64,000 nucleotides of DNA, taken from the NCBI GenBank assembly GCA_038046005.1, contig JBBSXB010000001.1:52769-116768 (forward strand). The letters run 5' to 3'. Source of the stretch: Nanobdellota archaeon. Its GTDB lineage: Archaea; Nanobdellota; Nanobdellia; Pacearchaeales; GW2011-AR1. The position numbers were made by a program, and so were the translations under genes. This document shows positions 9,998 to 60,124 of this stretch, in pieces. The first letter of the stretch is position 1. Every line of letters begins with the position of its first letter. Under the pieces are notes generated by a model. That model worked only from the letters and a program-made list of their open reading frames with translations. It made no database searches and was not told the DNA's origin.

Positions 9998-10019
9998 AAT
10001 ATAATTAAATTAACTGGTG

Positions 10020-10432: not shown

Positions 10433-10471
10433 AAAAAAATCATGAATTTAGAGTTTAAAAAGTTAGTTGTT

Positions 10472-39678: not shown

Positions 39679-39682
39679 CAAA

Positions 39683-41784: not shown

Positions 41785-42878
41785 TTTAAAGCGTGATAAA
41801 TTTTTTTGTATTTTCTGGCAATTGCAGACAATCCATTTTCCTTAAGGTAGTTAACACATTCTTGTTCCATTCTTTTAAGGTTTCGTGGTTTTATTGAATC
41901 TTTTATAACTCTTGGATAATCTTCGTCATCTTTAGCTATAGCAATTCCCTTAAAATGTCTTGACGCCTCATTAAAGAATTTTATATTGCTTACAATTATT
42001 GGCCTCTTTGCAGCTATTGAATGTGCAAAGATTCCACTCCCAATTCCCCCCCTATATGGAAGAAGAACTAAATCTGCTGCTGCAAAATATTTCCACCATA
42101 AAGGGTTCTTATCAGTTATGTCAAAAATATCAAAACGCACAAACTTTTCTAATTTTTTTTGTTTAACAATCTGTTTATTTTCCTCAATATAATCTCTTAC
42201 TCGGTCCGTATTTCTATCATTTACAGAACCTGGATTTGCAACAACAAGGGTTGTTCCACCTATTTTATCAGCTTGGTTGATGATAATATCATGGCCGTGA
42301 TCAGGCACCATACTCCCCATGAATAAATAAACTGGGCCAGATAATTTTAATTCCTTTTTTGTTTTTAATTTGTCATAAGAAGGCACATTCTCTATTATTC
42401 CTTGTGGAAGAACAGCTATTTTTGAAGGAGAAAAATTATACTCCTTGACTAATATATCCTTAAAAAACTCTGCATGAACAACAACCATATCTGAACACCA
42501 ATTTATAACTCTATTTTGAGTGAAATACAGAAATTTTCTAAAAAACGTCTTTAGTTTGCTACCTTTAAATTTTTCTTTTTTGGATAAAACTGTATGCATT
42601 GTCGTAATAACCCTACATTTACAAAAAGAAAACAAGAAATAAAGGGCAAAAAATGGAAGGCCATAACCTCCGAGCAAGTTATATTCGTGTTGTATATGAA
42701 CAACATCATATTTTTTTATTTCCTTAAATTTTTTGAATATATTGAATGGAGAACCGGCAGTATAATTTATGTTACTAATATCTTCTCCCTGTTGTTTAAT
42801 ACTATCAACAAGAGTTACAGAATAACCTGAAATCGCTTTTTCAGATTCTCTCGTTGGAAAAACCATTGCTATTTTCAT
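41781..42878 (-). CDS. Glycosyltransferase family 1/4
   Basis: 365 aa. GT-B fold. Overlaps the rmlD-like gene by 4 nt. Confidence 0.7.
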   Translation of the reverse strand: MKIAMVFPTRESEKAISGYSVTLVDSIKQQGEDISNINYTAGSPFNIFKKFKEIKKYDVVHIQHEYNLLGGYGLPFFALYFLFSFCKCRVITTMHTVLSKKEKFKGSKLKTFFRKFLYFTQNRVINWCSDMVVVHAEFFKDILVKEYNFSPSKIAVLPQGIIENVPSYDKLKTKKELKLSGPVYLFMGSMVPDHGHDIIINQADKIGGTTLVVANPGSVNDRNTDRVRDYIEENKQIVKQKKLEKFVRFDIFDITDKNPLWWKYFAAADLVLLPYRGGIGSGIFAHSIAAKRPIIVSNIKFFNEASRHFKGIAIAKDDEDYPRVIKDSIKPRNLKRMEQECVNYLKENGLSAIARKYKKIYHALK

Positions 42879-42901
42879 TTTGTTATTAGAGTTAATATCG
42901 T

Positions 42902-43888
42902 TTAATGAATATTACTTTTTGAGTGTTGAATTTTTATTTTCCAGTAATCAATTGTTTTTTTTAATCCTTCCTCTGGTGAGACTGTCTGTTCCCAATGCAG
43001 GATTTTTTTTGCTTGCGTACTATCCAGAACTAAATAAGGCTGGTCTGACGCCAATGGTCTATTTGGGTATCCTGGAGGGAATTCCCTCAAGTGCAATTTG
43101 CTTTCAGGAAATCCTATAAGTTTAGCAATTTTCAGCGCCCACTCTTTATTTGTAATTCCTTTTCCCCCAGAGATATTAAACGCGCTTCCTTGAATGTTTT
43201 TGGTTTTCATGGCTAAAAGGTAAGAATTAACATGATCCTCAACATACATGTAGTCTCTTATGGAATCTGGAGCACCTATGTAGATATCTTTTCCTTTGAT
43301 CATCTCTGTTATGAGGTACTCGGTAAAAAAACCCGGATCGTATTTTCTTCCAAACGTGTTGCTATTTCTTAAAATGACCACATTGAAATTATAAACTTTA
43401 TTTAGCATCCTCATGTAAATATCCATTGCTGCTTTGCTTACAGCGTATGGACTTGAGGCTTCTAATGACATATCTTCTGTGAAAGGAGTAAACTCTTTTA
43501 TCCCATAAACTTCTGCTGTTGAGGCTACTACTAGCCTAACTTTTTCAGGGCCATAAAGCTCAAGAATAGCCTCAGCCATATTCACTGACCCGAGATAATT
43601 TACTTTCTGGTATGCAATAGGATGTTCAAAGCTTAATCTTACTGGGGATAAGGCTGCAAGATGAAAAACAACATCAGGATTAACTTTTTGAAGAGAGTTT
43701 TTTATGGAGGTATAATCTACAATGTCGCATACGATTATTTTTATTTTGTCTTTAATGTCTTCTATGCTTTCTAAATTTCTTCCGATTACATGCCTAACAA
43801 TTCCGAAAACTTCATGGCCTTCATTCACTAATTTATGGGCCAATTCGCTTCCTATAAAACCAGTGATTCCAGTAATCATAACTCTCAT
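42902..43888 (-). CDS. NAD-dependent NDP-sugar 4,6-dehydratase/epimerase (GDP-mannose 4,6-dehydratase-like)
   Basis: 328 aa. ITGITGFIGSELAHKLVNEGHEVFGIVR closely resembles the GMD N-terminus. YAVSKAA catalytic YxxxK. Confidence 0.65.
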   Translation of the reverse strand: MRVMITGITGFIGSELAHKLVNEGHEVFGIVRHVIGRNLESIEDIKDKIKIIVCDIVDYTSIKNSLQKVNPDVVFHLAALSPVRLSFEHPIAYQKVNYLGSVNMAEAILELYGPEKVRLVVASTAEVYGIKEFTPFTEDMSLEASSPYAVSKAAMDIYMRMLNKVYNFNVVILRNSNTFGRKYDPGFFTEYLITEMIKGKDIYIGAPDSIRDYMYVEDHVNSYLLAMKTKNIQGSAFNISGGKGITNKEWALKIAKLIGFPESKLHLREFPPGYPNRPLASDQPYLVLDSTQAKKILHWEQTVSPEEGLKKTIDYWKIKIQHSKSNIH

Positions 43889-43928
43889 GAGATTGAGTAA
43901 GACTTATGATTTATAAGCTTTATTGACA

Positions 43929-44408
43929 TCAAGTAATGTTTAACCTAGACAGCAAATTATCAAGATATTTTTTTGATCCTTCTATGTCAGATTCTAATGG
44001 GGCCCACGGGGCGAATTCTTTGTAGATTTTAGGGTCGTATGGGCCTTGGGTTATTTCCAAAATCACTGCAGGATTATCAATAACAACTAATGAGTGGAAA
44101 TTTTTTTCCGGGATGTAGACTAAAGATGATACATCCCTAGAAGATTCCGAGACAATTTCGTAGTTTTTTATATCTCCTTCGTCTGTGAAATAGATCGGAG
44201 CAAGCTTACCTCTGAGAACTAACCAGTATTCATCTAATCTTTCACCATGCCTATGGGGCCTGACGTAAGTTCCTGGAAGCATTGCATTTAGTAAAGGTCT
44301 TACTCCCGTGTAATCTGCTGGTTTCAAAGCTTTAGCCTTCCTTAACCGAGGGTCTTTTCTAGCTTCTTCTAACAAATCATCAATAATTTTTTGGTTGACT
44401 GATTCCAT
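43929..44408 (-). CDS. Cupin-fold protein, WbuC-like (found in O-antigen/LPS clusters)
   Basis: 159 aa. RPHRHG metal-binding-like motif in a small beta-barrel sized protein. Assignment tentative. Confidence 0.45.
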   Translation of the reverse strand: MESVNQKIIDDLLEEARKDPRLRKAKALKPADYTGVRPLLNAMLPGTYVRPHRHGERLDEYWLVLRGKLAPIYFTDEGDIKNYEIVSESSRDVSSLVYIPEKNFHSLVVIDNPAVILEITQGPYDPKIYKEFAPWAPLESDIEGSKKYLDNLLSRLNIT

Positions 44409-44504
44409 AAAAAGTCCTACAAAAATGAGTTTTTAAAGATTTGGACTTCTAAGAGTATATTCTAATTACACAATCTTTTTAAAGAATTATTAGTAAGGTA
44501 ATTT

Positions 44505-45215
44505 ATGATATTTAAAACAGCAGTGATTATTGCTGGGGGGAAAGGAGAAAGACTGGGAGATATTGGAGAAGGACTACCAAAACCACTTGTAAAAGTTGAA
44601 GGAAAACCAATTTTAGAAAGAATAATCTTGTGGTTGAAAAAGAATGGTGTGGAAAAAATTGTGATAGGGGTTGCCTACAAAAAAGAAATGATTAAAGATT
44701 ATTTTGGTAATGGTAATAGACTTGGTGTAAAAATAATTTACACAGAACATGATGAGAATGGGGGAACTGAAGACGCTTTTAGGACTGCAATAGAAAAGTC
44801 TAAGATTGATGATGAAAATTTTTACGCATTGAATGGTGATCAAATCACAGATCTTCAACTTGAAGGGGTTACAAATAAACATTTAGTTTCACACGCAACA
44901 GTAACCATGATTACCACTAATCTAAGGACCAACTTTGGAATTGTGCAGATTGATGACAAGAATAGAATTGCTAACCTAAAAGAGAAGGGAGAAGTGAAAG
45001 GATTGCTCATCAATACCGGAATTTATGTTTTCAATAAAAAAATAAAAAATTATTTGGTCGGGGGAAACATAGAAGAAAAGGCTTTTAGAAAGCTGATAGA
45101 GGAAAAAAACATGATTTCATTTTACTATGACGGGCTGTGGACCAGCTTTAATGACAAAAAAGAACTCGCAGTAGCTGAAAAAGCAATTAGGGAATTTAGC
45201 GGACTGATTGATTAA
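44505..45215 (+). CDS. Sugar-1-phosphate nucleotidyltransferase
   Basis: 236 aa. N-terminal AVIIAGGKGERLGD...GLPKPLV signature of NTP-transferase (RmlA/GlmU-N-like). Confidence 0.8.
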   Translation: MIFKTAVIIAGGKGERLGDIGEGLPKPLVKVEGKPILERIILWLKKNGVEKIVIGVAYKKEMIKDYFGNGNRLGVKIIYTEHDENGGTEDAFRTAIEKSKIDDENFYALNGDQITDLQLEGVTNKHLVSHATVTMITTNLRTNFGIVQIDDKNRIANLKEKGEVKGLLINTGIYVFNKKIKNYLVGGNIEEKAFRKLIEEKNMISFYYDGLWTSFNDKKELAVAEKAIREFSGLID

Positions 45216-46332
45216 AATGAAAATCGGAATTGTGGCAGACGGCCCAAAAATATCGGGAAGCATGAAGTATATATTACAGCTTTATTCTAGAATTAGAAAA
45301 AAAGAAAAAACTTCACTTTTACATTTGGCATATGAGGGCAGATTAGATTTAAAAGGCTTAGACGTTGAAGAATTAAAACCTATAAAACTACCTTTTTTTA
45401 GTTATTTTTTTAACTTTGGAATTTATTATCCGATAAAAACTTGCTTTAAGTCACTGTCAAATTCTTTTGATATTATTCACTTTTCAAGGCACTATCCATT
45501 TTTTATCCTTTGGCATAAAATTCTAACAAAAAAAAAGATAGTTATTACATCGCATGATCTTTGGAAGTTAAACCATAGATATTTATTATTTTTAACAAAA
45601 ATTCTTAAAAGAGTGGACAAAATAATTACTGTCTCCAATGCAACAAAAAAAGAGCTGGTAGATTTGGGGCTAAATGAAGAAAATATTGAAGTAATTTATC
45701 ATGGGGTTGATAAAACAATTTTTAAGCCAATAGGTAGAGATAAAGCATTTAATCTTTTAACTAAAACAAAACTTCATGACAAGGTAAAAATTTTAAAAAA
45801 TGCAAGTAAAATATTTTTAAGTGTGAGTAATGATACTGAAAGAAAAAATACATCTAGGGTGTACGAAGCATTTTCAAAATACCTCAAGAAGGATGATAAA
45901 GCATTACTAGTAAGAGTGGTCTCGGCCACTAACAAGAAAATTATAGAATCTCAGACTAAAAGATTCAGCAGTAATGTATTATTTTTGCAGGGATTGTCTG
46001 AGGAAGAAATTAGTTTGATGTACAATATTTCGGATTTGTTCGTTTTTCCATCAATTTGTGAAGGGTTCGGTATGCCTTTACTGGAAAGTATAAGCTGTGG
46101 AACCCCTTGTGTTACATCAAACTTCCAGCCGATGACCGAAGTTGTCGGTGAATCTGGGATTTTAGTGGATCCTTACGATGTTGATTCCATTTATCAAGGT
46201 CTAATTTTGTGCCTAAAGAACAGAGATGTTCTTTCAAAAAAATCTTTAAAAAGGGCAGAACTATTTTCATTAGATAAAACTTTTCTTAAAACGTACGAGG
46301 TTTACAAAGATTTACAACAGGCCACAAAATAA
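45208..46332 (+). CDS. Glycosyltransferase family 1/4
   Basis: 374 aa. FVFPSICEGFGMPLLESISCGTPCV E-x7-E region. Confidence 0.75.
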   Translation: MIKMKIGIVADGPKISGSMKYILQLYSRIRKKEKTSLLHLAYEGRLDLKGLDVEELKPIKLPFFSYFFNFGIYYPIKTCFKSLSNSFDIIHFSRHYPFFILWHKILTKKKIVITSHDLWKLNHRYLLFLTKILKRVDKIITVSNATKKELVDLGLNEENIEVIYHGVDKTIFKPIGRDKAFNLLTKTKLHDKVKILKNASKIFLSVSNDTERKNTSRVYEAFSKYLKKDDKALLVRVVSATNKKIIESQTKRFSSNVLFLQGLSEEEISLMYNISDLFVFPSICEGFGMPLLESISCGTPCVTSNFQPMTEVVGESGILVDPYDVDSIYQGLILCLKNRDVLSKKSLKRAELFSLDKTFLKTYEVYKDLQQATK

Positions 46333-46333
46333 A

Positions 46334-47389
46334 ATGAAAATTCTTATGATTGCTACATATTACTTGCCCCGAGTTGGGGGTGGAGAGGATACTATAAAAA
46401 ATTATTGCAGGATTTTTAAGAAAAAAGGGCATTATGTAGAGGTAATAACAAAAAAATATGATATGTCGCTTAAAGACACTGAAATAATTGAAGGTGTCAA
46501 GATTCATAGAGTCCCTTACCACAGAAGTAACAAGCTAGGATTGGTTAAATTTTGGAGATGGATGTGGAAAAATAGAGCGAAGTTTAAGGATTTTGATGTA
46601 GTCATGTACAATGATTTTTCAACTTTTTATTGGTATTTACCACTTAAATTTTATTTTAAAAAACCAGATGTTATTTTGTACTACGGGTATGAGGGTTTTC
46701 CGATAAAAATAAAACACAAAATATTAAGAAGAATTGCAAAAGAGTTTACAAAGAAAAGCATTAATGGAGGAAGATATCTTGATAAGTATTACGGATTTAA
46801 AACTGATGATTATATTTATGAAGGTGTAGGGGATATAGAAAAAGTTCCAGTTAGTAAGAAAAAAAATAAGGCGGTTTTTATAGGCGGTCTTAGAAAAGAC
46901 ACATCTATATTGGAATATTTGAAATTCTTGAAGATTTTGAAGCAAAATCATGGCATTAACCTTGGCTTAGATGTCTATGGTGGAGGAGATTTGGATAAAC
47001 TGGCAAAAACATATGCCAAAAATAATAAATTAAATGTTATTTTTCATGGAGTTGTTCCAAATGCAAAGAGGTTCATTCCAATGTATAAATACGGATTTGC
47101 AACTCAATGGGGTTCAATAATGGACTGCATGAGGTCTAGAACATTGATCTTTGCGCTTTGTAAACTTCCAATTACATTAGACTATGACAGAGAGATTCTT
47201 GATGAAGGGCGATATGGAATAATCAGTACAGATCCTGGGGAAATGGTTGATAAGTTTATTAAGTGTTACAAAAATGAAAAACTGTTTAAAGACATAACAG
47301 CTCAAGCTTATGACCACTCAAAAACAAGAACATGGAATAAAATAGCTGGAAAGATACTAACCATATTGGAGCAAGCCATCAAGAGTTAA
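46334..47389 (+). CDS. Glycosyltransferase-like protein (GT4 N-domain, divergent C-domain)
   Basis: 351 aa. N-terminal MKILMIATYYLPRVGGGEDTIKNY resembles the Glyco_trans_4 N-terminus. Confidence 0.45.
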   Translation: MKILMIATYYLPRVGGGEDTIKNYCRIFKKKGHYVEVITKKYDMSLKDTEIIEGVKIHRVPYHRSNKLGLVKFWRWMWKNRAKFKDFDVVMYNDFSTFYWYLPLKFYFKKPDVILYYGYEGFPIKIKHKILRRIAKEFTKKSINGGRYLDKYYGFKTDDYIYEGVGDIEKVPVSKKKNKAVFIGGLRKDTSILEYLKFLKILKQNHGINLGLDVYGGGDLDKLAKTYAKNNKLNVIFHGVVPNAKRFIPMYKYGFATQWGSIMDCMRSRTLIFALCKLPITLDYDREILDEGRYGIISTDPGEMVDKFIKCYKNEKLFKDITAQAYDHSKTRTWNKIAGKILTILEQAIKS

Positions 47390-47420
47390 TTTAAAACATT
47401 TTTAAGCGTTAAGATTTTAA

Positions 47421-48527
47421 TCAATCAGTTTTGTTAAAAAAATCATCCAAACAACCACACACTCTTTTCTGATCATCCAGAGTTAACTCACCATGAAGAG
47501 GTAGAGAAAGAAGATTGTTGAATAGTAAGCTAGAATTTGTTAGCCCCCCCATATTTTTCAGATTTGCAAACGCTGGTTGAGTATGAAGCGCAAACGTTCC
47601 TATTTGGGATTCTATACCCTCACTGTGCAGATAGGAAATCACAGAGTCTCGTATTCCGTTTTCTTTTAGGAGCACAGTATAGGATTGAAAATTATGTTTA
47701 TTCCCTTCTGAAACATATGGTATTGTAAGGTAGCCTTTTTCCTTTAAAAGTTGGTTATATGAAAACGCTTTTTCTATTCTTCCGGTCACAATTTTTTCTA
47801 ATTTTTTTAATTGTTCCAAACCTATTGCTCCAAGGATGTTGCTAAACTTATAATTTGATCCCAAGGTTACAAATCGACCTTCTTCCATCCCAAAATGTTT
47901 GAAAGAATGCATTTTATTGTAAAGAATCAAATTGTCGGTGGTTATCATCCCCCCTTCACCAGTAGTAATTACCTTCCTGGGATGAAGACTAAAACAGGTA
48001 AGATCAGCAAGCGAACCCACCTTACACCCATCCAATTCTGACCCAAGGCTACATGCAGCATCTTCAATCAAAGGGATCCCAGCATTTTTTGCAAAGTCAT
48101 AGATTTCTTTGTCTAAAGGATTTCCCCCCCATGATACTGGCATAATTGCTTTTATTTTTGGAGTAATAGCTTCCTTTATTGCTTCGAGGGTTACGTTTCG
48201 TGATTTGACATCAACGTCAACAAGAATTGAATCGGCTCCAACAAGCATTACAGCTTCTGCTGTTGCAGGGTAGGTAAAATCTGGCATTACTACTTCATCT
48301 CCAGGGCCAATATTAAGAACTCTTAATGCTAGTTCAAGAGCAATGGTACAATTTGGAACCGCCACAGCATATTTTGCACCGACACTTTTTGCAAATTCTT
48401 CTTCAAATTTTTTAGTCACAACACCTTCAGTCAAAAATTTAGAGTCAAAAACTGCCTTTACTGCATTCAACTCTTCATCCCCCATTGTGGGTCTTGATAA
48501 GTGTATGTATTTTTGATTCTGTCCCAT
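47421..48527 (-). CDS. DegT/DnrJ/EryC1/StrS-family PLP-dependent sugar aminotransferase
   Basis: 368 aa. Characteristic family sequence, including the SxHxxK-like Lys region. Confidence 0.85.
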   Translation of the reverse strand: MGQNQKYIHLSRPTMGDEELNAVKAVFDSKFLTEGVVTKKFEEEFAKSVGAKYAVAVPNCTIALELALRVLNIGPGDEVVMPDFTYPATAEAVMLVGADSILVDVDVKSRNVTLEAIKEAITPKIKAIMPVSWGGNPLDKEIYDFAKNAGIPLIEDAACSLGSELDGCKVGSLADLTCFSLHPRKVITTGEGGMITTDNLILYNKMHSFKHFGMEEGRFVTLGSNYKFSNILGAIGLEQLKKLEKIVTGRIEKAFSYNQLLKEKGYLTIPYVSEGNKHNFQSYTVLLKENGIRDSVISYLHSEGIESQIGTFALHTQPAFANLKNMGGLTNSSLLFNNLLSLPLHGELTLDDQKRVCGCLDDFFNKTD

Positions 48528-48589
48528 TGGTTCTTTAAAAGACTACTATTTAAAAGGATATCTGTTTTGAGGACACAAATGTTTAAAAT

Positions 48590-49366
48590 ATGTATAATCT
48601 ACAAAAAATAATGAAGAATAACCCTTCAAATCTCAAGCAGGTATGGGAAGAATATTACGAAGAGGAAAGTGACACTGCAATAAAAGATAAGCCTTTTTTC
48701 TTGCTGGAAACAGAAACGATAGAAAAAGAAGTTGGAAAAATTGCAGAGAATAAAAAAAAGTTGAGTATCTTGGAGTTAGGATGTGGAACTGGCTTTTTAG
48801 CAAAAAGATTGATAAAAACTGTCTTCAAAAATCAAGAGTACACTTACACTGGAGTAGACATATCAAATAAGGCAATTGATAAAGCAAAAAAAAGAAAAAT
48901 ACCCAAGACTTTTTTCATGGAAGCTGATTTTTTTAATTTTTTTGAGAAAAGCACAAAAAAATATGATTTAATAATCTCCCAGAGATCCATAATGGCATTA
49001 TTAAAAAAGGAAGAGCAACTAAAACTTTTAGGTTTAATTAACTCTAGGCTGACAGATAAGGGCATCGGACTGTTTACAGAGTGTCTACATGAAGCTTCTG
49101 AAGAAATAAATGATTATCGAAAACAATTAGGGATTGAGCCATTTAAAAAAGTTTGGCACAGTAGATACCTGAGAATTGACGAAATAAAACAAATTTTTGA
49201 AAAATACAAGATTGTTGACTTTTGCTCTACTTACTGGCTAATAACAAGAATTATCTACCCTTATTTTAAAGAACCAAAACATAACACCCGTTTGTCTAAA
49301 GTTGTAGCAGAGTTCCCAGAGTCGGGAAAATATGGGCTGGTTAAACTAATAATTGTTCAAAAATGA
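48590..49366 (+). CDS. Class I SAM-dependent methyltransferase
   Basis: 258 aa. LELGCGTGFLAKRL motif I. Confidence 0.7.
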   Translation: MYNLQKIMKNNPSNLKQVWEEYYEEESDTAIKDKPFFLLETETIEKEVGKIAENKKKLSILELGCGTGFLAKRLIKTVFKNQEYTYTGVDISNKAIDKAKKRKIPKTFFMEADFFNFFEKSTKKYDLIISQRSIMALLKKEEQLKLLGLINSRLTDKGIGLFTECLHEASEEINDYRKQLGIEPFKKVWHSRYLRIDEIKQIFEKYKIVDFCSTYWLITRIIYPYFKEPKHNTRLSKVVAEFPESGKYGLVKLIIVQK

Positions 49367-50244
49367 AATCTATTTTGATAACTGGCGGAAGCGGTTTAGT
49401 TGGAAGTAATGTTGCTAAATTTTTTAATAATAAAGGTTATAAAATTTTTACGGTTGATTTGAAAGAAAGTTCATTTAACAACCATATTGTGTGTGACTTG
49501 AGCAAAAAAGAAAATTTAGTAAAGCTGCCAGAGAAAGTTGATTATGTTTTTCATTTTGCGGCGCATGTGGATGAGAAAGATGAAAATAAGGAGTATTTAC
49601 TAAGAAATAACGTACTTTCTACATTAAATGTATTAGAATATGCTCTTAAAAATAAGGTTGAAAAAGTTGTTTATTCCTCAAGCAGTGCAGTCTATGGAAA
49701 GACTGAAGAGTACCCAATAAAAGAAGATTTCTCAAAAAAGCCCCAGTCAATTTACGGAATATCAAAATATTTTGGAGAAGAACTTTGTAATCTCTATCGG
49801 AAAAGAGGGTTGCAAATAATATCATTCAGATTAGGTTATGTTTTGGCTCCAGTAATCCCAGAAAGGTATTTTATTTACAGAATTATGAAAAAACTAAACA
49901 ATAATGAGTGTATCACAATCACAAATGGAGTCAAGAATAGCATGTCATTTGTTGATGTGGAAGACATAGGGGCTTTTTGTGAGGAAGGGTTGAATAAAGA
50001 CCTAACTGGGAATTTTAATCTGACAGGCCAAAGAGAAGTGAATTCAAAAGAGGTCATAGATCTTCTAGTTAAAATGTTTAAAGAATATTCTGGAGAAATT
50101 AAAGAGGAAGAAAATAATTCAATCATGAGAAATTGTTTTTCCAATGAGAGACTTTACTCGACGTTTAATCAGAGGTATAGGCTCGGTATTGAGGATTCTT
50201 TAAACAGAATAGTCGCTAGTTTTAAAGACGGTCTAACGGAGTAA
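49363..50244 (+). CDS. NAD-dependent epimerase/dehydratase family protein
   Basis: 293 aa. ITGGSGLVGSNV and YGISKYFGE (YxxxK). Confidence 0.75.
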   Translation: MKSILITGGSGLVGSNVAKFFNNKGYKIFTVDLKESSFNNHIVCDLSKKENLVKLPEKVDYVFHFAAHVDEKDENKEYLLRNNVLSTLNVLEYALKNKVEKVVYSSSSAVYGKTEEYPIKEDFSKKPQSIYGISKYFGEELCNLYRKRGLQIISFRLGYVLAPVIPERYFIYRIMKKLNNNECITITNGVKNSMSFVDVEDIGAFCEEGLNKDLTGNFNLTGQREVNSKEVIDLLVKMFKEYSGEIKEEENNSIMRNCFSNERLYSTFNQRYRLGIEDSLNRIVASFKDGLTE

Positions 50245-51277
50245 ATCTTGCTTTTAAAGGAACCATATATTTCATGAATATAACTTCTGCAGGAGTTTTC
50301 ATCTTTGTATAGAGTTTGTCTGTAAGTGAAAAATGGGTGACTCTGTTCCCAAACTTAACACTACTTGCATTTGCTACAGTGATCAAAAGAACATCTGAAG
50401 AAGAGCCTTCGATATTTGAGATTACAGTTTTTGGATCTTGTGTTAATAAGATTTTGAATTGATAGTCTCTTGTGGACAGAACATCTTCCCTCGAAGAAGC
50501 ATCTTGTCTTGTGTCAATAGTATAACCACTGTATTTATTAAGATCACGACCAAATTCTCCTAAAAAGTTGGACATCAAGTTTAATTTTTCTTGTATATCC
50601 AGATTTTTATAAGAAGAAAAACCTTCAACCACTTTTGCAGGATTACCTCTAGCAAGCGAGTTTGGGAGGACATCTTTTGTCACATTACTCTGGAAAAGAA
50701 CAATTGCCCTATCTCCGATGGTTACTCCAGGAGAAACATAAACCGAACCTGTAAGCCAAACATCATTTCCTATAGTGACGGGCGCAATAGAATTAACAAC
50801 GCATCCTTCCAATAGTTCTCCATGGTATCCATGAGAGTATATCTCTGAGCGAGCCCCAATACCAACATTATTACCAATTGTTAACCCTCCAGATGAATTA
50901 AGAATAGCATCGCTACCTACCCAGAAATTATGGCCTATTGAAAGAGGTAAGTGACCTTGAAATCTAACTCCGTCCTGGACTGTCGCATAATCACCAATAG
51001 ATAATTTAGGAAGGTAAATCTTACAATTTTCCCACACATCACAAAAATCCCCAAGACTCAATGATTCAAGGTTAATTTTTCTAGAAGAAACAACATTAAC
51101 TCCTCTCCTGATTCTGGTCCCATCACCAACATAAATTTTCTCTCCAGCTAGTGAAACTCCATCTTCAATTATGACATCTTTTCCAATGTATAAATTGGCT
51201 GCTTCAATGTAAGCTCGCTTAGACACTTTTGCAGAATTATCAACGTATGAATTCGTTGCCTTTATATTTTGGGGCAT
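50222..51277 (-). CDS. Left-handed beta-helix (hexapeptide-repeat) acyl/acetyltransferase with ~120-aa C-terminal extension of unknown function
   Basis: 351 aa. Many [LIV]-G-x4 hexapeptide repeats in residues about 20-230. C-terminus has no recognisable motif. Confidence 0.6.
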   Translation of the reverse strand: MPQNIKATNSYVDNSAKVSKRAYIEAANLYIGKDVIIEDGVSLAGEKIYVGDGTRIRRGVNVVSSRKINLESLSLGDFCDVWENCKIYLPKLSIGDYATVQDGVRFQGHLPLSIGHNFWVGSDAILNSSGGLTIGNNVGIGARSEIYSHGYHGELLEGCVVNSIAPVTIGNDVWLTGSVYVSPGVTIGDRAIVLFQSNVTKDVLPNSLARGNPAKVVEGFSSYKNLDIQEKLNLMSNFLGEFGRDLNKYSGYTIDTRQDASSREDVLSTRDYQFKILLTQDPKTVISNIEGSSSDVLLITVANASSVKFGNRVTHFSLTDKLYTKMKTPAEVIFMKYMVPLKARFTPLDRL

Positions 51278-51331
51278 AGATTAAAAGGAGTAACGGCATT
51301 TAAAAAATTATGTGTTTTTAAAAATGGTTAA

Positions 51332-52330
51332 TTAAGAATTTTTCGATTCATCTCTCCATTGAATTAATTTTGTTAAACCATAAGGTAAACTGTATACTGG
51401 TTTGAACCCCAACATTTCTTCAGTTTTTTTAGTACTACCAATCCTGTTTTTCACAAGAAGTCTTGCGTCACCTTCACTATAGGGGTTAAATTTAACAGTC
51501 AAATCTGAATTCTTCAATTTAAGTATTAGGTTGCATAATTCTCTAATTGTTGTTTGAACACCCGTACCAACATTAAAAAATTCATCGGATAAAGGTGATT
51601 TAAGCGCAACAATATTGTACCTGGCAACATCTTCAACATAAACAAAATCGTAAGCCTGGGTGCCATCTCCATTTATAATTGGTTGTTCATTTGCATCTAT
51701 TTTGTTAAGCATTATAGGCACAACTCCAGAATAAACCGAGTCTTGATTTTGTCCTGGGCCATAAACATTCATGTACCTTAACCCAACATAATCTAAACCA
51801 AACCTATCATGAAAAGCTCTGCACATTGCTTCACCAGAAATTTTAGTAGCCCCATAAAAATTCCTATTGTTGAAAGGATGATTTTCACTCATTGGAATTT
51901 CAACTGCATCACCATAAACAGAAGCGGAAGAAGAGTAAATAAGTTTACTTATCTTATTTTTTACACAAGATTCAAGAACATTAAACGTTCCTTCTGTATT
52001 TACCTTAAAGGCAGTTCGCGGAAAATCTTTGCAGTGAAGAAGCCACATAGCCGCCAAATGAAAAACATAGTCTACCCCTATCATTGCATCATCGAGGGTG
52101 TCTAGATCATTTATGTTGCCACCATTAGGGTATATAACGCAACGTGAATCCAACAATAATTTTTCTAGATTTTCCATTTTGCCTCTAGAAAAATTATCAT
52201 AGACTACTACTTTGCCAACATTCTCTTTAAGAAGTTCAGAAACAACATGTGAACCAATGAAACCAGCACCACCAGTGACCAAGATTTTTGCCCCATTCAG
52301 ATTGTTTTCCATTTTAGTGAGATTAAACAC
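51332..52330 (-). CDS. UDP-sugar 4-epimerase-like NAD-dependent epimerase (GalE/WbpP family)
   Basis: 332 aa. VTGGAGFIGSHV and YGATKISGE (YxxxK). The alternative start at Met7 (52312) is also plausible. Confidence 0.8.
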   Translation of the reverse strand: MFNLTKMENNLNGAKILVTGGAGFIGSHVVSELLKENVGKVVVYDNFSRGKMENLEKLLLDSRCVIYPNGGNINDLDTLDDAMIGVDYVFHLAAMWLLHCKDFPRTAFKVNTEGTFNVLESCVKNKISKLIYSSSASVYGDAVEIPMSENHPFNNRNFYGATKISGEAMCRAFHDRFGLDYVGLRYMNVYGPGQNQDSVYSGVVPIMLNKIDANEQPIINGDGTQAYDFVYVEDVARYNIVALKSPLSDEFFNVGTGVQTTIRELCNLILKLKNSDLTVKFNPYSEGDARLLVKNRIGSTKKTEEMLGFKPVYSLPYGLTKLIQWRDESKNS

Positions 52331-52388
52331 TTTGCCTAGTAAAAAAAGAATGTTTAAAAGATTTTCGGTATAAAAACGAATGTATTAG

Positions 52389-54278
52389 CTAAATGTTAGT
52401 TGTAGAAACATTCATCTCTTTATACACTCCATTATCAATATAAAGATTATGCCAAACTTCAAAACAGAGCATGTTCCAAATGAGGTTGTATTTTCTTGTT
52501 AATTTTGGAGAAGGTGGAGAAGAAAGTATTTTTTTTATGTAATCTTGATTGATCATTCCCTTTTTAACTAAAACTCCATCAATCAATTTTTGTTGTGCTA
52601 AATCCCTCACTTCACTTATATAAGTTTCAAAATTAGTTGGACCAAAACCTTGTTTAGGTCGATTGATGGAATTTAACCCGATTTTTTCCCGCATAACTTT
52701 TTTTAGAAGATATTTTCCCACACCTCCATTGATTTTTAATGAATGGGGAATCGAAAAAGCAAAATTTATTAAAGTTTTGTTTAAAAAAGGTACTCTGGAT
52801 TCTAGAGAATTAGCCATAGATGTAACATCGTCAACGAATAGGAAATCATCAACCATCTTGACCTTAAAGTCTGCTTTTAACATTTGAGTTAAAACATCAT
52901 TATTGCCCTTGAAAAATTGCTGGTATTTTGATGTTAAATTACTCCATGTAAAATTTTTAAGGGTTTTTCCATATATATCTGAGTATTCTTCTGGAAAGAT
53001 TTTGTCTAGCGACTTTGAAAGCAAGTAGAAATCCGCCTTTTTATTTTGTTTGAGTAGAGAAGACAAAACTTGGCCCAATTCTGCAAAAGAAAGATCATCG
53101 GAACTATTTTTTATTTTGGAAATAAGCAGATCAAATTGCTCTTTAGAAAGAATAACCTTTTGGTCGTTGTTCAAAGCATATAAATACTTGTGATAGTATC
53201 CTGCAAAAAGTTCGTCAGAACCAAGTCCACTCAATACAACTTTAACATGCTTAGATGCTTCCTTTGCAATATAATAAGGATATAAGTTTCTTTTAGGAGT
53301 ATCAGCATACCAAATAAGCTTAGGAAGTTCTTCCAAAAAATTGTCTGAGATTATTATGTTTCGATGATCCACATTTAACTTTGACGCCATTTCTTGTGCA
53401 TGCTTAAATTCATCATTATCTTCGTTGAAACCCATACAAAAAGTTTTTATTTTGTGGGATGAAAATTTAGAAGCATAATAAGTTATTGTACTACTATCTA
53501 TCCCACCAGAAAGGTAGACACCAATTGGTACGTCACTTATTAAATGGGATCTTACTGATTCTTCTAAAAGTTTGGACATATTTTTTTCATAATAAGAAAA
53601 ATCGTAGTTTGTTTCCTTAACTTTTAAATCCCAATATTTAACTATTTTTACCCCATTCTCGGAAATTTTTATAAAGTGGCCCGGAAGTAATTTTTTTATT
53701 CCTTTAAAAAGTGTTCCCTCGAAGGGGATAAATCTGAAGTTCAAAAATTCGTGTGCCGCATTAAGGTCCACTTCCCTTTTTATTTCATCATTTTGTAATA
53801 TTGCTTTAATTTCTGAAGCAAAAAATAACTTGTTATTTTGCAGGATATAGAACAGAGGTTTGATCCCAACAGGATCTCTTACTAGGTATAAATTTTTTTT
53901 GCTGGTGTCCCATAATGCAATAGCAAACATTCCTTCAAAAAGATCAAAGCAGTTCTCCCCATATTGCTCATAAGCATGCACTATTGTTTCCGTATCGGAA
54001 TGAGTTTTGAAAATATGGCCTTTCTTTTCCAATTCCCATTTTAATTTCAAAAAATTATAAATTTCTCCATTATACACTACCCAGATTGTACCATTCTCAT
54101 TAGAGATGGGTTGTTTTCCATTAGAAAGATCGATAATACTCAATCTTCTGTTACCCAGTCCAACAATTTTATCAGAATAATATCCGTAATCATCTGGCCC
54201 CCTGTGAACTAGGGAGTTGGTCATTTTTTTAAGAAGAGGCATATCTTCTGTCCCATAAAAACCAGCAATTCCGCACAT
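52389..54278 (-). CDS. asnB: Asparagine synthase (glutamine-hydrolysing) family amidotransferase
   Basis: 629 aa. N-terminal MCGIAGF Ntn-Cys and SGGIDSS PP-loop motif. Confidence 0.85.
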   Translation of the reverse strand: MCGIAGFYGTEDMPLLKKMTNSLVHRGPDDYGYYSDKIVGLGNRRLSIIDLSNGKQPISNENGTIWVVYNGEIYNFLKLKWELEKKGHIFKTHSDTETIVHAYEQYGENCFDLFEGMFAIALWDTSKKNLYLVRDPVGIKPLFYILQNNKLFFASEIKAILQNDEIKREVDLNAAHEFLNFRFIPFEGTLFKGIKKLLPGHFIKISENGVKIVKYWDLKVKETNYDFSYYEKNMSKLLEESVRSHLISDVPIGVYLSGGIDSSTITYYASKFSSHKIKTFCMGFNEDNDEFKHAQEMASKLNVDHRNIIISDNFLEELPKLIWYADTPKRNLYPYYIAKEASKHVKVVLSGLGSDELFAGYYHKYLYALNNDQKVILSKEQFDLLISKIKNSSDDLSFAELGQVLSSLLKQNKKADFYLLSKSLDKIFPEEYSDIYGKTLKNFTWSNLTSKYQQFFKGNNDVLTQMLKADFKVKMVDDFLFVDDVTSMANSLESRVPFLNKTLINFAFSIPHSLKINGGVGKYLLKKVMREKIGLNSINRPKQGFGPTNFETYISEVRDLAQQKLIDGVLVKKGMINQDYIKKILSSPPSPKLTRKYNLIWNMLCFEVWHNLYIDNGVYKEMNVSTTNI

Positions 54279-54329
54279 TGAAATGAGAATCCTAAAGGCT
54301 TTTTAAAGTATGTTATTACTAAACGCCAC

Positions 54330-55691
54330 CTAATTAAAAGGCAGCTGATATTTTTTAAACCGCGACCATAGAACTAACATTCCCAAATAAAAAAGATTGC
54401 TGATTACTGTAGAGACAGTAACTCCATACACTTTGGCTAGGCTTCCAGAAGAAGCTAAAAGAAAAATAGCTGCTATGTTTAGTAAGATATTTAAGATTAT
54501 TGAAAAGACTAGTGAAAAAATAACTTTTCGCAGTTTTCCCTGTGAAATGTAAAGAGAAGAATAAAGTGAGATTATCGGGGATATCAACAGCACGACAGAG
54601 AATATTCTAAGAATGTTTGCTGATGAAATGTATTCTTCGCCAAAAATGATTTTTACTAAAAGAGGAGAAAAAACTAAAGTGAATAAAAATGCGAATATTC
54701 CAAGCAAAATGGTAATATTACGAGCTTTTTGAAACCCTTTATATAATCTTTTGCCTTTCAATTTTATAAATAGGGGAAAAAGAACACTTGAGAATGTTAA
54801 CAGAGGGATAGCAGAAGTAATCAAACTCAAAGCTGCCCTGTAGTAGGCAATAAATTCTGCGTCAACGAATCTCCCGAGAATTATTATGTCTATATAACCA
54901 AACAAAAGCCCAGAGAGAGTTAAAGCAGATAAAGATATGATAAATTTGTTAACAATACTCTTTTCATTTTTTTTCAATCCATCATTTCTTTTTTTTAGAA
55001 AGTTAATTTCTTTTTTGGCACTAAAAAAAATATACAAAAACACAGTCAAATAGGAAAAAGAAAGTCCAAGGATTACTGAGGCTATCAAAATATCCGAAGA
55101 AAGACGTGATATAAAAAGTAGTATTAGTAATGGCACTATGATAAGACGTAAAACTTGAAAAATAATTTCTTGGAAAAGACCTTTTTTAAAATTGTTTAAA
55201 GCCGGAAAAAGGCTTGCAAAAAGAGAATTCAGAGAATTAAAAGCGATATAAAAGCTTCCAGCAATTAAAGCATAAAATATGGGTTTTTCATAGTAATAAT
55301 TTGCTATAAAATATGATAATAAGATCATAATGAGGATTAATGAGGAGGTTAGAATAACTTTAGTTTTTAATAAGTAAGAAAAATATGCTTTAGACTTTTT
55401 TTCAGCCCTTGATGAAACGACGAATTTTATTAAAGTTTGCCCAATACCGAGATCAGAAAATAATGCAAAAAGAGATATTGTTGAAAGTGCTAAAGAATAC
55501 AACCCAAAAAGTTCAGGCATTAACAATCTTGCAGTAATTATCGTAAATATCAGAGAGCCTATTTTAGAAACTAAAATTGTTGCGGTGGTCCAGCCTGAAT
55601 TTTTAATTGCCTGGCCGGTATTGCCAGAAAAATTTCGCTTCTTTATCCTTATCAACACATCTTGCAAAAAAAAAGGTGTTTTTTTTAACAT
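54330..55691 (-). CDS. Polysaccharide/oligosaccharide flippase (MOP superfamily, Wzx-like)
   Basis: 453 aa, about 12-14 TM, no soluble domains. Confidence 0.6.
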   Translation of the reverse strand: MLKKTPFFLQDVLIRIKKRNFSGNTGQAIKNSGWTTATILVSKIGSLIFTIITARLLMPELFGLYSLALSTISLFALFSDLGIGQTLIKFVVSSRAEKKSKAYFSYLLKTKVILTSSLILIMILLSYFIANYYYEKPIFYALIAGSFYIAFNSLNSLFASLFPALNNFKKGLFQEIIFQVLRLIIVPLLILLFISRLSSDILIASVILGLSFSYLTVFLYIFFSAKKEINFLKKRNDGLKKNEKSIVNKFIISLSALTLSGLLFGYIDIIILGRFVDAEFIAYYRAALSLITSAIPLLTFSSVLFPLFIKLKGKRLYKGFQKARNITILLGIFAFLFTLVFSPLLVKIIFGEEYISSANILRIFSVVLLISPIISLYSSLYISQGKLRKVIFSLVFSIILNILLNIAAIFLLASSGSLAKVYGVTVSTVISNLFYLGMLVLWSRFKKYQLPFN

Positions 55692-55756: not shown

Positions 55757-56551
55757 TCACTCTTCAATTTTTCTTATAAGGTCTGTAAATGCAGGTCTTG
55801 TGATTAAGACACCTGCGGTGATTCCTATTAATGTTGTAACTGCAAAACCTTTAAGCAAGCCTGCTCCAGCCCACAATAAAGGCAACAATGAAACAAAAAC
55901 AGTGAAATAAGAACCGAGTATAATTGCAAATGCTCTCTTCATTTTTTCTTTAAGACTAAGGACCTTTCCATGTTTAGCCTCATCTATGACCACAATTTGC
56001 TGATCGACTCCAGTACCAATAGTTGCAAGTATTCCTGCAATTCCGGGAAGGTCAATATTCCATTTTATCAAAGCAGCAATTCCCAGAATTATTATCACTT
56101 CAGAAAAGCTTGTCAACAACAATGCAAGAGAAGTTTTGATTTTTTTGTATCTTACAAAGATTATTATAGAGACTGCCAAGAAAGAGGCGATGCCTGTAAT
56201 AAAAATGGCCCGTGTAAAATCCTTTCCATCATTATCTCCTTGGTACATACATCCGCTGCCAAGATGAACAAAGTAAATTCTTCTTAGTGCACATTCTGTG
56301 GATAAGTTTATCGCAGCGCTTACATTTGACTGTAGAGTTTCCTCTTTATGTTTTTCACACCAGTCAATGTTGGGTTTACCAGTTTTGCCAATAGCATTTA
56401 TAACAACTGATGGTTTTGTTTCATCTAAGAAAGAGGCTAGATCTTTAATATTCGTTGGATCGACAATTTCTCGGTCAACTATTTCATAACCTAAACTGCT
56501 AGAAATTCTCGTACCCAAAAATCCTTTGCCAAAAACAATTTGTTCATCCAT
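55757..56551 (-). pseudogene. Chimeric ORF: N-terminal ~110 aa of an RmlD-type reductase fused in frame to a diverged copy of the last ~150 aa of SecD
   Basis: Residues 1-110 align with the RmlD N-terminus (IVFGKGFLG...PSVVINA...). Residues about 113-264 are about 60% identical to the SecD C-terminus encoded at 57654..58150. The junction lies at GK(D/E)FT, shared by both parents. Confidence 0.6.
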
Positions 56552-57573
56552 CTTTCAAAGGTCTCCACCAAGATTCATTTTCTCTATACCATTCCACTAA
56601 ATTTTTTAAACCTGTGTTAAAATCTGAATGTTTTGGCTCAAAACCTAGCCCTCTAAATTTTGAATCATCTATAGAATATCTAAAATCATGACCCTTTCTG
56701 TGATCTACTCTTTGCACCATTTCTTCACCAACCCCAAATATATCGAGAAGTGTTTTAGTAACGTCAGTATTTGTTCTCTCATTTCTTCCCGCAATGTTAT
56801 AAATTTCTCCAGGTTTTCCTTTTTGGGATAGATGTCATATTGCTCTACAGTTATCCTTTACATCCAGCCAATCTCTAACATTTAATCCAGGATTTTCTAG
56901 AGACCACATCAAGGGAACTTTCTTTCCATCAATAAGATGTGTTATAAACAAAGGTAAAAATTTTTCAGGAAATTGAAAAGGGCCGTAGTTGTTTGCACTT
57001 CTTGTCACAATTACTGGAAGGCCATGAGTATAAAAATAAGATCTTGCAAGATGCTCCGCTGCTGCCTTTGTTGCAGAATAAGGGCTTCTAAGGTTTAGCA
57101 CATCACCTTCTTTTGAAGATGGGCTAAACTCATCTAGACTTCCATACACTTCGTCTGTTGAAACTTGTAAAAAAAGACTAACATTACTTTTCAAAGAAGC
57201 TTCTAATAGATTACGCGTACCCCTAACATTTGTTTCAACAAAAGAAGAAGAATCACCAATACATCTGTCAACATGAGTTTCTGCCGCAAAATGAAAAACT
57301 ATATTAGGTTTATATTCATTAAAAATTTCAGACACTTCTGGTGAACAAATGTCTACTTGCTTGAATTTATATCTTGATCGCTTCCCAGTCCCAAGGCCTA
57401 ATATGCATGCACTCTAAATTTCTTCCCTGCCCCGCGTATGTTAGATTATCAACATTGCAAACTTGGTTTTCTTCTTTAAATTCTGGGTCGTGAAGTAAAT
57501 ACTCAATAAAGTTGCTCCCTATAAACCCGCTTCCGCCTGTGACTAGAATTCTTGGCATTTTAAAAGCCAACAA
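56544..57573 (-). pseudogene. rmlB: dTDP-glucose 4,6-dehydratase (rmlB) disrupted by one frameshift and one in-frame TGA
   Basis: N-terminal piece (ILVTGGSGFIGSNF...NVDNLTYAG) at 57367..57573. Central piece (HFAAETHVDR...STDEVYG...YSATKAA...NNYGP) at 56835..57335. In-frame TGA at 56835..56837, after which the C-terminus (KPGEIYNIAGRNE...DHRKGHDFRYSID...WW) continues in the same frame to 56544. A +1 shift sits in a G-run near 57384..57394. Confidence 0.7.
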
Positions 57574-57653
57574 AAAAAACTATTTAAAGTATTATGTAGC
57601 AGGAATATATATTATTCACTTCTAGATTTTATTCTACAAAATCAGCTATTTTT

Positions 57654-59174
57654 CTATTCGTGTATCCTTCTAACAATATCTGCAAATGCGGGCCTCGTGA
57701 TCAATATTCCAACAGTAACACTTAGTATAGTTGTTAAAGCAAATCCTTTTAACATTCCTGCCCCTGCCCAAAATAAAGGGAGCATTGCTGCTATAATTGT
57801 GAAGAAAGCTCCAAAAATAATGAACAGGGCCCTTTTTATCCTTTCTTTTGCACTTAAATGTTTATTAGAAGTAGCTTCATCTAGTATAACAATTTGGTCG
57901 TTTACCCCCGTTCCCATTCCAGCTATTATTCCCGCGATACTTGGAGCGTCTAAATTCCAGCCTATTAAAGCAGCAATTCCCAAAGTTATGAATGCTTCTG
58001 AGAACATTGTTAAGATTACAGAAAGGGTTAATTTTATTTTCCTGTATCTAACAAATAAAATAATTGAGATTATTACAAATACTAAAATTCCCAAAAAGAT
58101 TATGTTCTTGGTAAACTCTTTCCCAAGATTAGGAGATAAAGTGTCCAGCTTGACAATTTCCAGTTTATAAGGAAGACTCCCAGTTATCAGTATAGTTTGA
58201 AGATTATGCATTGATTCTTCAGCAGCAGTATAAGCATCTTCTTCTGTTGCACCAGAGCCAGAACCAGAAATAGATATTTGTGTTGTGACTCTTCCCTTAA
58301 GGCTGTCCCCAATTAAAAGAGTGTCAACAAGATTGTCATCTAGATAAAGGTCTAAATTTTTAGACAAATAACTTCCCTGCGCAGTTAAGTTTACGCTAAG
58401 ATTTTTTGTTAAGTCAGCATGTCTTTGTGCTGCTTGTTCACTTAGATAAACTGAAAATCTGAAACTACAGAAAAATCCTCCAGATTGCGAGGGAAAACAG
58501 CTTTCCACTCCTGCACAAGTTGCATCATTTCTGCAAACAGAGGTTATGTCTTTGTCTCCGCCTACAAAAGCGGTGTCGTTCCCTATTTTAGCTTCAAATT
58601 TCCCTTGTTGGGAAATAAGAGTTTCCAAATCTTTAGGTGTTGCACCAGCTATTTCAATTAATACAAAATTATTTCCGCTCAAATCTGAAACTGGAGCAAT
58701 AACCACATCCGCAATTCCATAAACATTAAACCTATTACTGATTACATCCACAAGATCTGTCATTTCTGAAGAAGTAAGATCTTTCTCCTTGGCTTTTATC
58801 AAAGCCCTAGACCCTCCAGAGAGATCAAGTCCCGTCTTGATATTTGTTTTAGGGATAGAAGAGACTGTTAAACCCAAAGATTGATTAGAGTAAACAATAA
58901 ACTCTCCCTCATTTGTTGTTATTATTGTTTTTAAATATTGATTTGAATAATTTTTAGCGCCGACAATTTTGGAAAAATCTTCTACACTAGAAATTTTTTC
59001 ACCATCAATAAAAGTAATAACCTGGCCCTGCCTAAGCCCCTCCGATAATTCTGTGGAATTTCTTTCAACACTTGTTATCACAACCCCCTTTTCTAAAGAC
59101 TTCCAAGGAGCGATTATTAAAAAGGCCAAAAGTAAAACAGTTAGCAAAATCCAAATCCTAAGCCCTAATTTCAT
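57654..59174 (-). CDS. secD: Protein-export membrane protein SecD
   Basis: 506 aa. N-terminal TM, large periplasmic domain, C-terminal 5-TM region with GTGVNDQIVILDE-type motif. Confidence 0.85.
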   Translation of the reverse strand: MKLGLRIWILLTVLLLAFLIIAPWKSLEKGVVITSVERNSTELSEGLRQGQVITFIDGEKISSVEDFSKIVGAKNYSNQYLKTIITTNEGEFIVYSNQSLGLTVSSIPKTNIKTGLDLSGGSRALIKAKEKDLTSSEMTDLVDVISNRFNVYGIADVVIAPVSDLSGNNFVLIEIAGATPKDLETLISQQGKFEAKIGNDTAFVGGDKDITSVCRNDATCAGVESCFPSQSGGFFCSFRFSVYLSEQAAQRHADLTKNLSVNLTAQGSYLSKNLDLYLDDNLVDTLLIGDSLKGRVTTQISISGSGSGATEEDAYTAAEESMHNLQTILITGSLPYKLEIVKLDTLSPNLGKEFTKNIIFLGILVFVIISIILFVRYRKIKLTLSVILTMFSEAFITLGIAALIGWNLDAPSIAGIIAGMGTGVNDQIVILDEATSNKHLSAKERIKRALFIIFGAFFTIIAAMLPLFWAGAGMLKGFALTTILSVTVGILITRPAFADIVRRIHE

Positions 59175-60124
59175 TTTATTCCTCTTTTGTCACAGTACCA
59201 TTTAATTATACTGGCGTTTGTGAGCCATGTGTTGAAGATATCTGCGCATAAACCGATAGCCAGTATTAAAAAAATCTGCCTAAATGAATCTGGAAGACCG
59301 GTGACTAGGAAAAAAGCAGGAAGTACGGCTGCCAAGGCAGTTAAAGTCATTAATATACCTGTTTTGAATGCACCGTAAATTCTTTTGTTCAAAGAATCTT
59401 CATGAGATTTTAATGCCCTAGATGTTAGCAATATGTCTGTATCAACAGAATAACCTATAAGCATTAAGAAAGCTGCAATTCCTGCGGCAGATATTTTTAC
59501 CTCGAAAAAGTTTAATACTGCTAAAGGCATAACTATGTCTGCAAAGACTGCAAATATGACTGCAATGCTTGGAATAAATGTTCTAAAAAGAAATAATATA
59601 ACAAAAGACATTAAGATAAATGATATTATAAGAGCCATTATTAATTGCTTGTAAAAACCTTGACTCAAAGTTGATCCGGTAAACTCTATTGTAGAATTTG
59701 CATCTGTTAATTCATAACCAAGTACTTTTTCAATTTCTAGTTTTAATGTTTGTGGTTCTGCCGAGCTTTCAATTATTAGTGCAATTTGTTTTTGGGATGT
59801 AATATCACTAAGACTTGTGAATGATACATCTGGAAATTTTGTTTTTAGTCCTGTTTCTAAGACTTCCCTGTTTATGTTTCCTTGCAATGTTATGGATGAC
59901 CCACCTGAGAGAGAAACATCTTTGTAAATGAAATCGCCATGATTTTGATAGAATATAACTAAATAGACCAGACATAAAGCCAGGACAATTAGAGGAATTA
60001 AAAGCAGAGTCTTATGGTGTTTGTCATACCAATGTTTATGTTCTTTGAATGTTTTATGTTTTTGCTCTTGCGCATGCTCTTTTTTTTCTTCTGTTTTTTC
60101 CGCGTGTTGCTCGCTGTTTTCCAT
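59171..60124 (-). CDS. secF: Protein-export membrane protein SecF
   Basis: 317 aa. ATGA-overlapped with secD (archaeal secF-secD order). Confidence 0.85.
   Translation of the reverse strand: MENSEQHAEKTEEKKEHAQEQKHKTFKEHKHWYDKHHKTLLLIPLIVLALCLVYLVIFYQNHGDFIYKDVSLSGGSSITLQGNINREVLETGLKTKFPDVSFTSLSDITSQKQIALIIESSAEPQTLKLEIEKVLGYELTDANSTIEFTGSTLSQGFYKQLIMALIISFILMSFVILFLFRTFIPSIAVIFAVFADIVMPLAVLNFFEVKISAAGIAAFLMLIGYSVDTDILLTSRALKSHEDSLNKRIYGAFKTGILMTLTALAAVLPAFFLVTGLPDSFRQIFLILAIGLCADIFNTWLTNASIIKWYCDKRGIK

Follow-up and report, generated by a model that had tools for sequence, protein, structure and literature searches.

A probable young rmlB pseudogene beside an in-frame rmlD::secD junction at a surface-glycan locus of a Nanobdellota archaeon

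Known dTDP-glucose 4,6-dehydratases (RmlB; family TIGR01181) are extended short-chain dehydrogenases/reductases (SDRs), of which several structures have been solved (PDB 8shh, 6bi4, 1r66 and 2hun). We take GxxGxxG to be their NAD-binding motif and T-D-E and YxxxK to be their catalytic motifs, roles that come from established knowledge of RmlB structures. At the level of whole loci, the closest described cases are the replacement of O-antigen/capsule or agl loci with decay of an orphan gene and, for the joint itself, homology-facilitated illegitimate recombination (HFIR), the subject, reportedly, of work by de Vries and Wackernagel in 2002. HFIR through short microhomologies is an established route of foreign DNA integration in bacteria (PMC6382021). 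Here we describe an rmlB gene on the minus strand of a 64,000-nt stretch of DNA (the window) from the metagenome-assembled genome (MAG) GCA_038046005.1 of a Nanobdellota archaeon (contig JBBSXB010000001.1, positions 52,769 to 116,768). The gene carries two lesions and stands next to a chimera of rmlD and secD. We consider it, with a probability of about 0.85, to be a real, ordinary and very young pseudogene left by replacement of a glycan cluster.

Two lesions in a recognisable rmlB frame

The rmlB pseudogene occupies 56544..57558 (minus strand), from an ATG at 57558..57556 to the natural stop at 56546..56544. As the original prediction had it, the frame is recognisable from end to end. The repaired gene has 337 codons, and its translation covered positions 1-321 of the 321 positions of TIGR01181 (E = 6e-107). 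The score was 357.4 bits (curated cut-off 365.1), obtained with a query that carried X at the premature stop and a slightly wrong repair of the shift. Solved RmlB structures matched the repaired translation with E = 2e-84. The closest homologue, P0001, is an intact protein of 337 aa that is 88% identical over its full length; it is named dTDP-glucose 4,6-dehydratase in its source and comes from a syntenic locus of Nanoarchaeota archaeon H41-bin116_1 (lineage H). The motifs GGSGFIG, STDEVYG and YSATK are kept in the window gene, and all of them fall in invariant alignment columns.

No uninterrupted frame of ~330 aa was found; open reading frames (ORFs) of 63-68, 166 and 58 aa were present instead. 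The first frame starts at the ATG with MPRILVTGGSGFIGSNF... and stops at a TAA (57367..57369, minus strand), giving 63 aa from ATG 57558 or 68 aa from an upstream TTG. The second frame, open from about 57412, runs through RYKFKQVDICSPE to DNCRAI and meets a TGA at 56835..56837 (minus strand). Past this TGA the same frame continues as HLSQKGKPGEIYNIAG... and reaches the natural stop after WWRPLKDG.

When the whole rmlB coding sequence (CDS) was aligned with the DNA of lineage H, a single indel was observed. The window reads AGGCCTTGGGACTGGG, and lineage H reads AAGCC-CGGCACTGGC; the window has one extra base at 57393/57394, at about codon 56, in the coding-strand sequence CCTTGGG (57390..57396, minus strand). 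Removal of base 57394 restored HIRPGTGKRSRYKF, for which the lineage H counterpart is HIKPGTGKQSRYKF, together with the full 337-aa frame. On the coding strand, the simplest candidate for the extra base is one T of the TT pair. A frameshift in a G homopolymer had been predicted here; the single-base shift does lie inside the predicted range, but there is no G homopolymer, only GGG (twice) beside TT. A 4-aa insert, HI[RK]P, adjoins the frameshift site and is common to the RmlB of the window and that of lineage H.

The second lesion is the premature TGA, at codon 241. Orthologue DNA has TGG (Trp) at this position, and 107 of the 120 closest homologues have Trp in that column. When a further sister lineage (lineage J) is taken as outgroup, TGG>TGA is a single G>A transition on the window branch. 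The TGA had been correctly located, in frame, by the original prediction; the Tyr that it gave for E. coli RmlB is not the ancestral residue here, which is Trp, and the sister lineage has TGG. The E. coli enzyme is not a relevant reference for this clade. Both lesions are absent from the intact orthologues of lineages H and J, which have TGG and lack the extra base. Each lesion is enough by itself to abolish the RmlB enzyme.

The rmlD::secD junction and the ancestry of the locus

The rml loci of both sister lineages are intact. In lineage H (L001) the gene order is NUDIX, SecF (317 aa), SecD (506 aa), RmlB (337 aa), RmlD (278 aa), RmlA (290 aa), flippase (460 aa), NeuB and further genes; in lineage J (L008; JGI contig Ga0598269_0000579) it is SecF, SecD, RmlB (332 aa), RmlC, RmlD, methyltransferase, RmlA and flippase. 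The window is collinear with both through tRNA-Gly, secF, secD and rmlB and into rmlD to about codon 108, past which it jumps to the last 156 codons of a secD. The rmlD 5′ fragment (codons 1 to about 108; 56228..56551, minus strand) corresponds in alignment to the first third of RmlD (278 aa) from lineage H and to TIGR01214 positions 8-107, and its start overlaps the rmlB stop. The secD 3′ remnant (last 156 codons plus stop; 55757..56227, minus strand) is of the lineage H type, with 84% nt and 97% aa identity to lineage H SecD. Its similarity to lineage H stops a few bases past its stop codon, which is a natural gene boundary.

The recombination junction (GGAAAGGATTTTAC; 56214..56227, minus strand) is the segment where homology to lineage H rmlD ends and homology to lineage H secD begins. 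Over these 14 nt the rmlD and secD of lineage H are identical at 11 of 14 positions and both encode G-K-G/D-F-T, so that the new joint has a microhomology of the HFIR type, with a length read from sister lineage H and not from parental sequences. The fusion is in frame and produces a chimeric 264-aa ORF, RmlD (N-terminal part)::SecD (C-terminal part) (55757..56551, minus strand), which was also present in other per-run assemblies. The 3′ two-thirds of rmlD are gone, and rmlA is absent from the window locus. The suggestion of gene decay next to an rmlD/secD chimera is supported by these losses, with rmlD cut and fused and rmlA missing, and by the lack of both lesions in the orthologues of the two sister lineages. 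A scan of GTDB representatives with the chimeric ORF matched only lineage H (L017, identical to L001); the window's own genome lies outside that set.

The native upstream neighbours of rmlB are an intact secF (317 aa) and secD (506 aa) of the lineage J type (57654..60124, minus strand), of which SecD has 93% aa identity to P0121 of lineage J. The window secFD showed 80-94% nt identity to lineage J and 47-75% to lineage H, and the secFD of lineage H was only 47-75% identical to that of either the window or lineage J. The two secDF classes are ~62% identical in nucleotide sequence, against 83-85% for their flanks (window 57654-60124 and 55757-56227; L001 7474-9944; L008 3440-5907), and at 60.1-64 kb the window, lineage H and lineage J have flanks with 81-85% identity. 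Because the window secFD is of the J type whereas lineage H and the remnant have the other type, two deeply divergent secDF allele classes evidently occupy the same chromosomal site in sister Nanoarchaeota. The window holds a whole J-type secFD copy plus a 3′ fragment of an H-type secD.

Two other origins of these pieces were considered and rejected. The remnant is not a copy of the neighbouring secD, since its aa identity is only 59% to the intact neighbour but 97% to the SecD of lineage H. The intact secFD is not the imported part; in the three-way comparison the window and lineage J share one type at baseline divergence, and lineage H and the remnant share the other. The rmlB gene itself is a fine mosaic, in which the first ~150 nt and the segment 57360-57300 are J-like and the core is H-like (identity up to 96%). 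This pattern suggests repeated homologous exchange among these lineages.

A promoter-like region that contains the TATA-like element TTTAAATA lies upstream of rmlB (57565..57625, minus strand) and is 100% identical to lineage H and ~93% identical to lineage J. These ~60 nt (GTGAATAATATATATTCCTGCTACATAATACTTTAAATAG...) are more conserved than the CDS, and in lineage H the element overlaps the secD stop codon. The region is probably an archaeal promoter. A milder reading, novel in kind, is that the in-frame RmlD(1-108)::SecD(351-506) chimera may be expressed from this conserved rml promoter as a putative new membrane protein.

Selection on these sequences was estimated from the ratio of nonsynonymous to synonymous divergence (dN/dS). 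For rmlB the ratio was 0.13 against lineage H, vs. 0.12 for lineage H against lineage J; there was no signature of relaxed selection, and we therefore read the inactivation as very recent. The secD remnant gave dS 1.13, dN 0.023 and dN/dS 0.02 against lineage H. This very low ratio indicates that strong purifying selection acted on the remnant during practically the whole of its divergence, with no decay. The proportion of synonymous differences (pS) from lineage H was 0.59 for the remnant, significantly higher than the 0.37 for rmlB. Window-specific changes in rmlB comprised 9 nonsynonymous (including the nonsense change) and 13 synonymous ones, and changes on the lineage H side 12 and 34; the difference is a hint only. 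Of the substitutions unique to the window rmlB, P156L alone affects a column that at least 95% of the 120 homologues conserve. Because dN/dS is low and the upstream 60 nt are still 100% identical to lineage H, the rearrangement and both lesions are, on these comparisons, evolutionarily recent.

The following history would account for the locus. The ancestral order would have been tRNA-Gly, secF, secD, rmlB, (rmlC), rmlD, ..., rmlA, flippase and further glycan genes. In the window lineage, foreign DNA would then have replaced the downstream surface-glycan island. The left end of this DNA would have lain inside the donor's own H-type secD, and the donor secD end would have been joined in frame to the recipient rmlD at the 14-nt partial similarity. 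In the same event the recipient would have lost the 3′ two-thirds of rmlD, along with rmlA and the remainder of the old island. Left partnerless, rmlB would subsequently have acquired the 1-nt insertion (~codon 56) and the TGG>TGA change (codon 241). We infer the order of these events, the mechanism of recombination and the relaxation of selection on rmlB through loss of its partners. The junction resembles the product of HFIR, and the end of the remnant at a gene boundary would fit a donor in which secD stood directly before the new island. One new junction would be enough, because secF-secD-rmlB-rmlD is the native order in both sister lineages.

An alternative to an island import is a tandem duplication, or the re-integration of a circularised 1.9-kb secD3′-rmlB-rmlD5′ unit, in which case rmlB would lie in a mobile or duplicated fragment. 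Set against lineage H, the window has H 9930-11341 first and H 9474-9952 next, a circular permutation of the kind that a tandem duplication or a Campbell-type integration gives. However, the intact secD of the window is only 59% identical in aa sequence to the remnant, so that no duplicate partner is left, and the secD-rmlB adjacency is ancestral, so that one new junction suffices. The pS values from lineage H (0.59 for the remnant vs. 0.37 for rmlB) argue for separate sources, and the homology of the remnant stops at a gene boundary. Since several further replacements would be needed and the end at a gene boundary would stay unexplained, we rank duplication or a circular intermediate below island import and consider it improbable.

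Sequencing error and recoding

If the lesions were sequencing or assembly errors, the cell would have an intact gene, and both the extra base and the A in place of G would be consensus artefacts of the MAG. The metagenomic origin of the assembly lends itself to such a view, as do the short runs (TT, GGG) that the insertion adjoins and the state of rmlB, which is otherwise fully conserved, with dN/dS 0.13 and intact catalytic motifs. However, the per-run Logan assemblies of SRR32696711, SRR32696707 and SRR32696678 were 100% identical to the window over 5849, 4643 and 1912 nt, respectively, with no mismatch or gap. The assemblies of SRR32696711 and SRR32696707 spanned both lesions and that of SRR32696678 only the TGA; reproducibility was judged here on assembled contigs, not on reads. 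The chimeric neighbour ORF and the rmlB pieces were found on at least 9 contigs. A protein collection of 5.8 billion clusters contained no intact protein more than 88% identical to rmlB. Because the three per-run assemblies are identical and no intact allele was found, random sequence error is unlikely. It would also be odd for one gene of 1 kb to gather two independent errors with the rest of the 64-kb window clean; systematic errors do not typically take the form of G>A substitutions, and neither lesion lies in a long homopolymer. Both lesions fall exactly in the gene whose operon was truncated. We thus regard an artefact as quite unlikely.

Recoding would require that UGA be read as Trp, by near-cognate readthrough or a reassigned code, and that the ribosome shift by +1 at CCU-UGG-G; full-length RmlB might then be made, perhaps at a regulated low level. 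The TGA does stand exactly at a conserved Trp codon, which is the pattern of codes in which UGA means Trp; the promoter-like region upstream of rmlB is perfectly conserved with lineage H, and rmlB has no other decay. However, of the 69 non-overlapping ORFs with 100 aa or more, 22 end in TGA; many of these belong to overlapping or tightly packed gene pairs, and tightly packed ribosomal-protein genes are among them. SecD is conserved at its C-terminus, where the aligned stop codon is TAG for the intact window gene, TGA for the window remnant and for lineage H, and TAA for lineage J. These findings support the earlier statement that TGA is a genuine stop here. The 64-kb window yielded neither a tRNA with a UCA anticodon nor any relevant Rfam family, and no recognised slippery or stimulatory motif was found at the rmlB frameshift. 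Neither lesion is kept in the sister lineages, and a rescued RmlB would be without known use because its partners rmlD and rmlA are gone. With TGA an ordinary stop and rmlB intact in both sister lineages, recoding is unlikely, as had been predicted. That tRNA-Trp decodes the UGA and a +1 shift occurs as well, such that a DPANN archaeon keeps making a little RmlB from an apparently dead gene, is in our view extremely improbable.

Two further candidates were set aside. Phase variation by slipped-strand mispairing is unlikely, as the longest runs are only 2-3 nt. Selenocysteine at the TGA is unlikely, as RmlB is no selenoprotein and the ancestral codon is Trp.

The glycan island and comparison with known systems

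The putative replacement island, of ~17 kb (38600..55691), lies between secD and Epimerase_2/AglB, and its content differs from that of the sister clusters. It carries genes for a flippase, an AsnB-like amidotransferase, SDR epimerases, an acetyltransferase, a PseC-like aminotransferase, glycosyltransferases, an NTP-transferase, a 4,6-dehydratase paralogue, an RmlD-like ORF and a C-methyltransferase. The flippase has only about 30-60% aa identity to those of lineages H and J. In the compared parts of the lineage H and J clusters, no orthologues of island genes were found beyond this divergent flippase and, in lineage J, a distantly similar C-methyltransferase. The NTP-transferase (nucleotidyltransferase, 236 aa) is at 44505..45215, the 4,6-dehydratase-like SDR (328 aa) at 42902..43888, the RmlD-like reductase (281 aa) at 40939..41784 and the C-methyltransferase at 39683..40942. 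The 4,6-dehydratase-like SDR is 25% identical to RmlB and scored 169 bits on TIGR01181, far below the cut-off. By sequence similarity, the deoxysugar-type genes of the island are apparently distant paralogues and not orthologous replacements of the rml genes; another predicted nucleoside diphosphate (NDP)-sugar route adjoins the broken rmlB in this cell.

A contig of lineage J is collinear with the window (about 78% nt identity) from SecY past AglB/STT3 and ends within Epimerase_2, at window position 38220. Because collinearity reaches this point, the variable island can be placed at ~38.6-55.7 kb, between secD and the oligosaccharyltransferase gene. The best homologue of AglB/STT3 (window 34457-37420) outside this population is 78% identical (lineage J) and the next 66%; the AglB of lineage H was not among the 120 AglB matches listed. 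The oligosaccharyltransferase itself may vary among these lineages. The window as a whole has 33% GC and carries a ribosomal-protein cluster, separate secD and secF genes and AglB/STT3. An Rfam tRNA match of 99 nt (48.7 bits; 9899-9997, minus strand), for which ARAGORN made no call, is probably an intron-containing archaeal tRNA.

Several points weigh against the view that rmlB decayed after replacement of the island. There is no measurable relaxation of selection, and the term decay rests on two lesions plus one substitution. The data cover just 64 kb of the genome, and other rml genes could exist elsewhere. The right-hand end of the recombination is only bracketed, between 38220 and 55757. 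No donor of the island was found in JGI metagenome contigs (flippase query; best match 45% identical) or in the GTDB representative scan (chimera query); secD followed by the new island is the arrangement that we infer for it. HFIR has been shown in bacteria, and we know of no demonstration of it in DPANN archaea or in archaea at large. The three runs may not be independent of the MAG's own data, and the comparison was one of assemblies, so that a small residual probability of error remains.

GenBank lists the 166-aa (MEK6917466) and 58-aa (MEK6917465) rmlB pieces and the 264-aa chimera (MEK6917464) as ordinary CDSs (55757-57335). The main value of the present findings is for annotation: these entries should be flagged as pseudogene remnants, and no dTDP-sugar pathway should be assigned to the genome at the rmlB locus. 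The broken rmlB opens no new question. The locus would give a clean, naturally occurring case of a surface-glycan island being replaced in an episymbiotic-type archaeon, with an illegitimate junction resolved to the base. Two divergent secDF alleles that circulate at one site provide background for recombination and cell-surface variation in DPANN archaea.

In comparison with known RmlB, the window gene shows homology from end to end, keeps the NAD-binding and catalytic motifs and, in the sister genomes, belongs to an operon with rmlD and rmlA. It differs in that its frame is broken twice, so that a full-length enzyme is impossible, and in that its archaeal RmlB clade carries LMWSxENPGLNVRDW in place of the YGDGxNVRDW of bacterial enzymes (window 56900-56945, residues about 214-228). 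As in replacement of O-antigen/capsule or agl loci, a variable glycan island is found between conserved secD and Epimerase_2/AglB, with gene content wholly different from that of the sisters and remnants of the old cluster at one edge. Unlike in those cases, the host is an uncultivated DPANN/Nanoarchaeota genome, and the edge in the window is an in-frame illegitimate junction that brings in a fragment of a deeply divergent secD allele. The likeness to HFIR is that foreign DNA was apparently joined at one end by way of a short partial similarity and that the recipient DNA in between was lost; the difference is that the homologous anchor at the other end of the imported DNA was not located.

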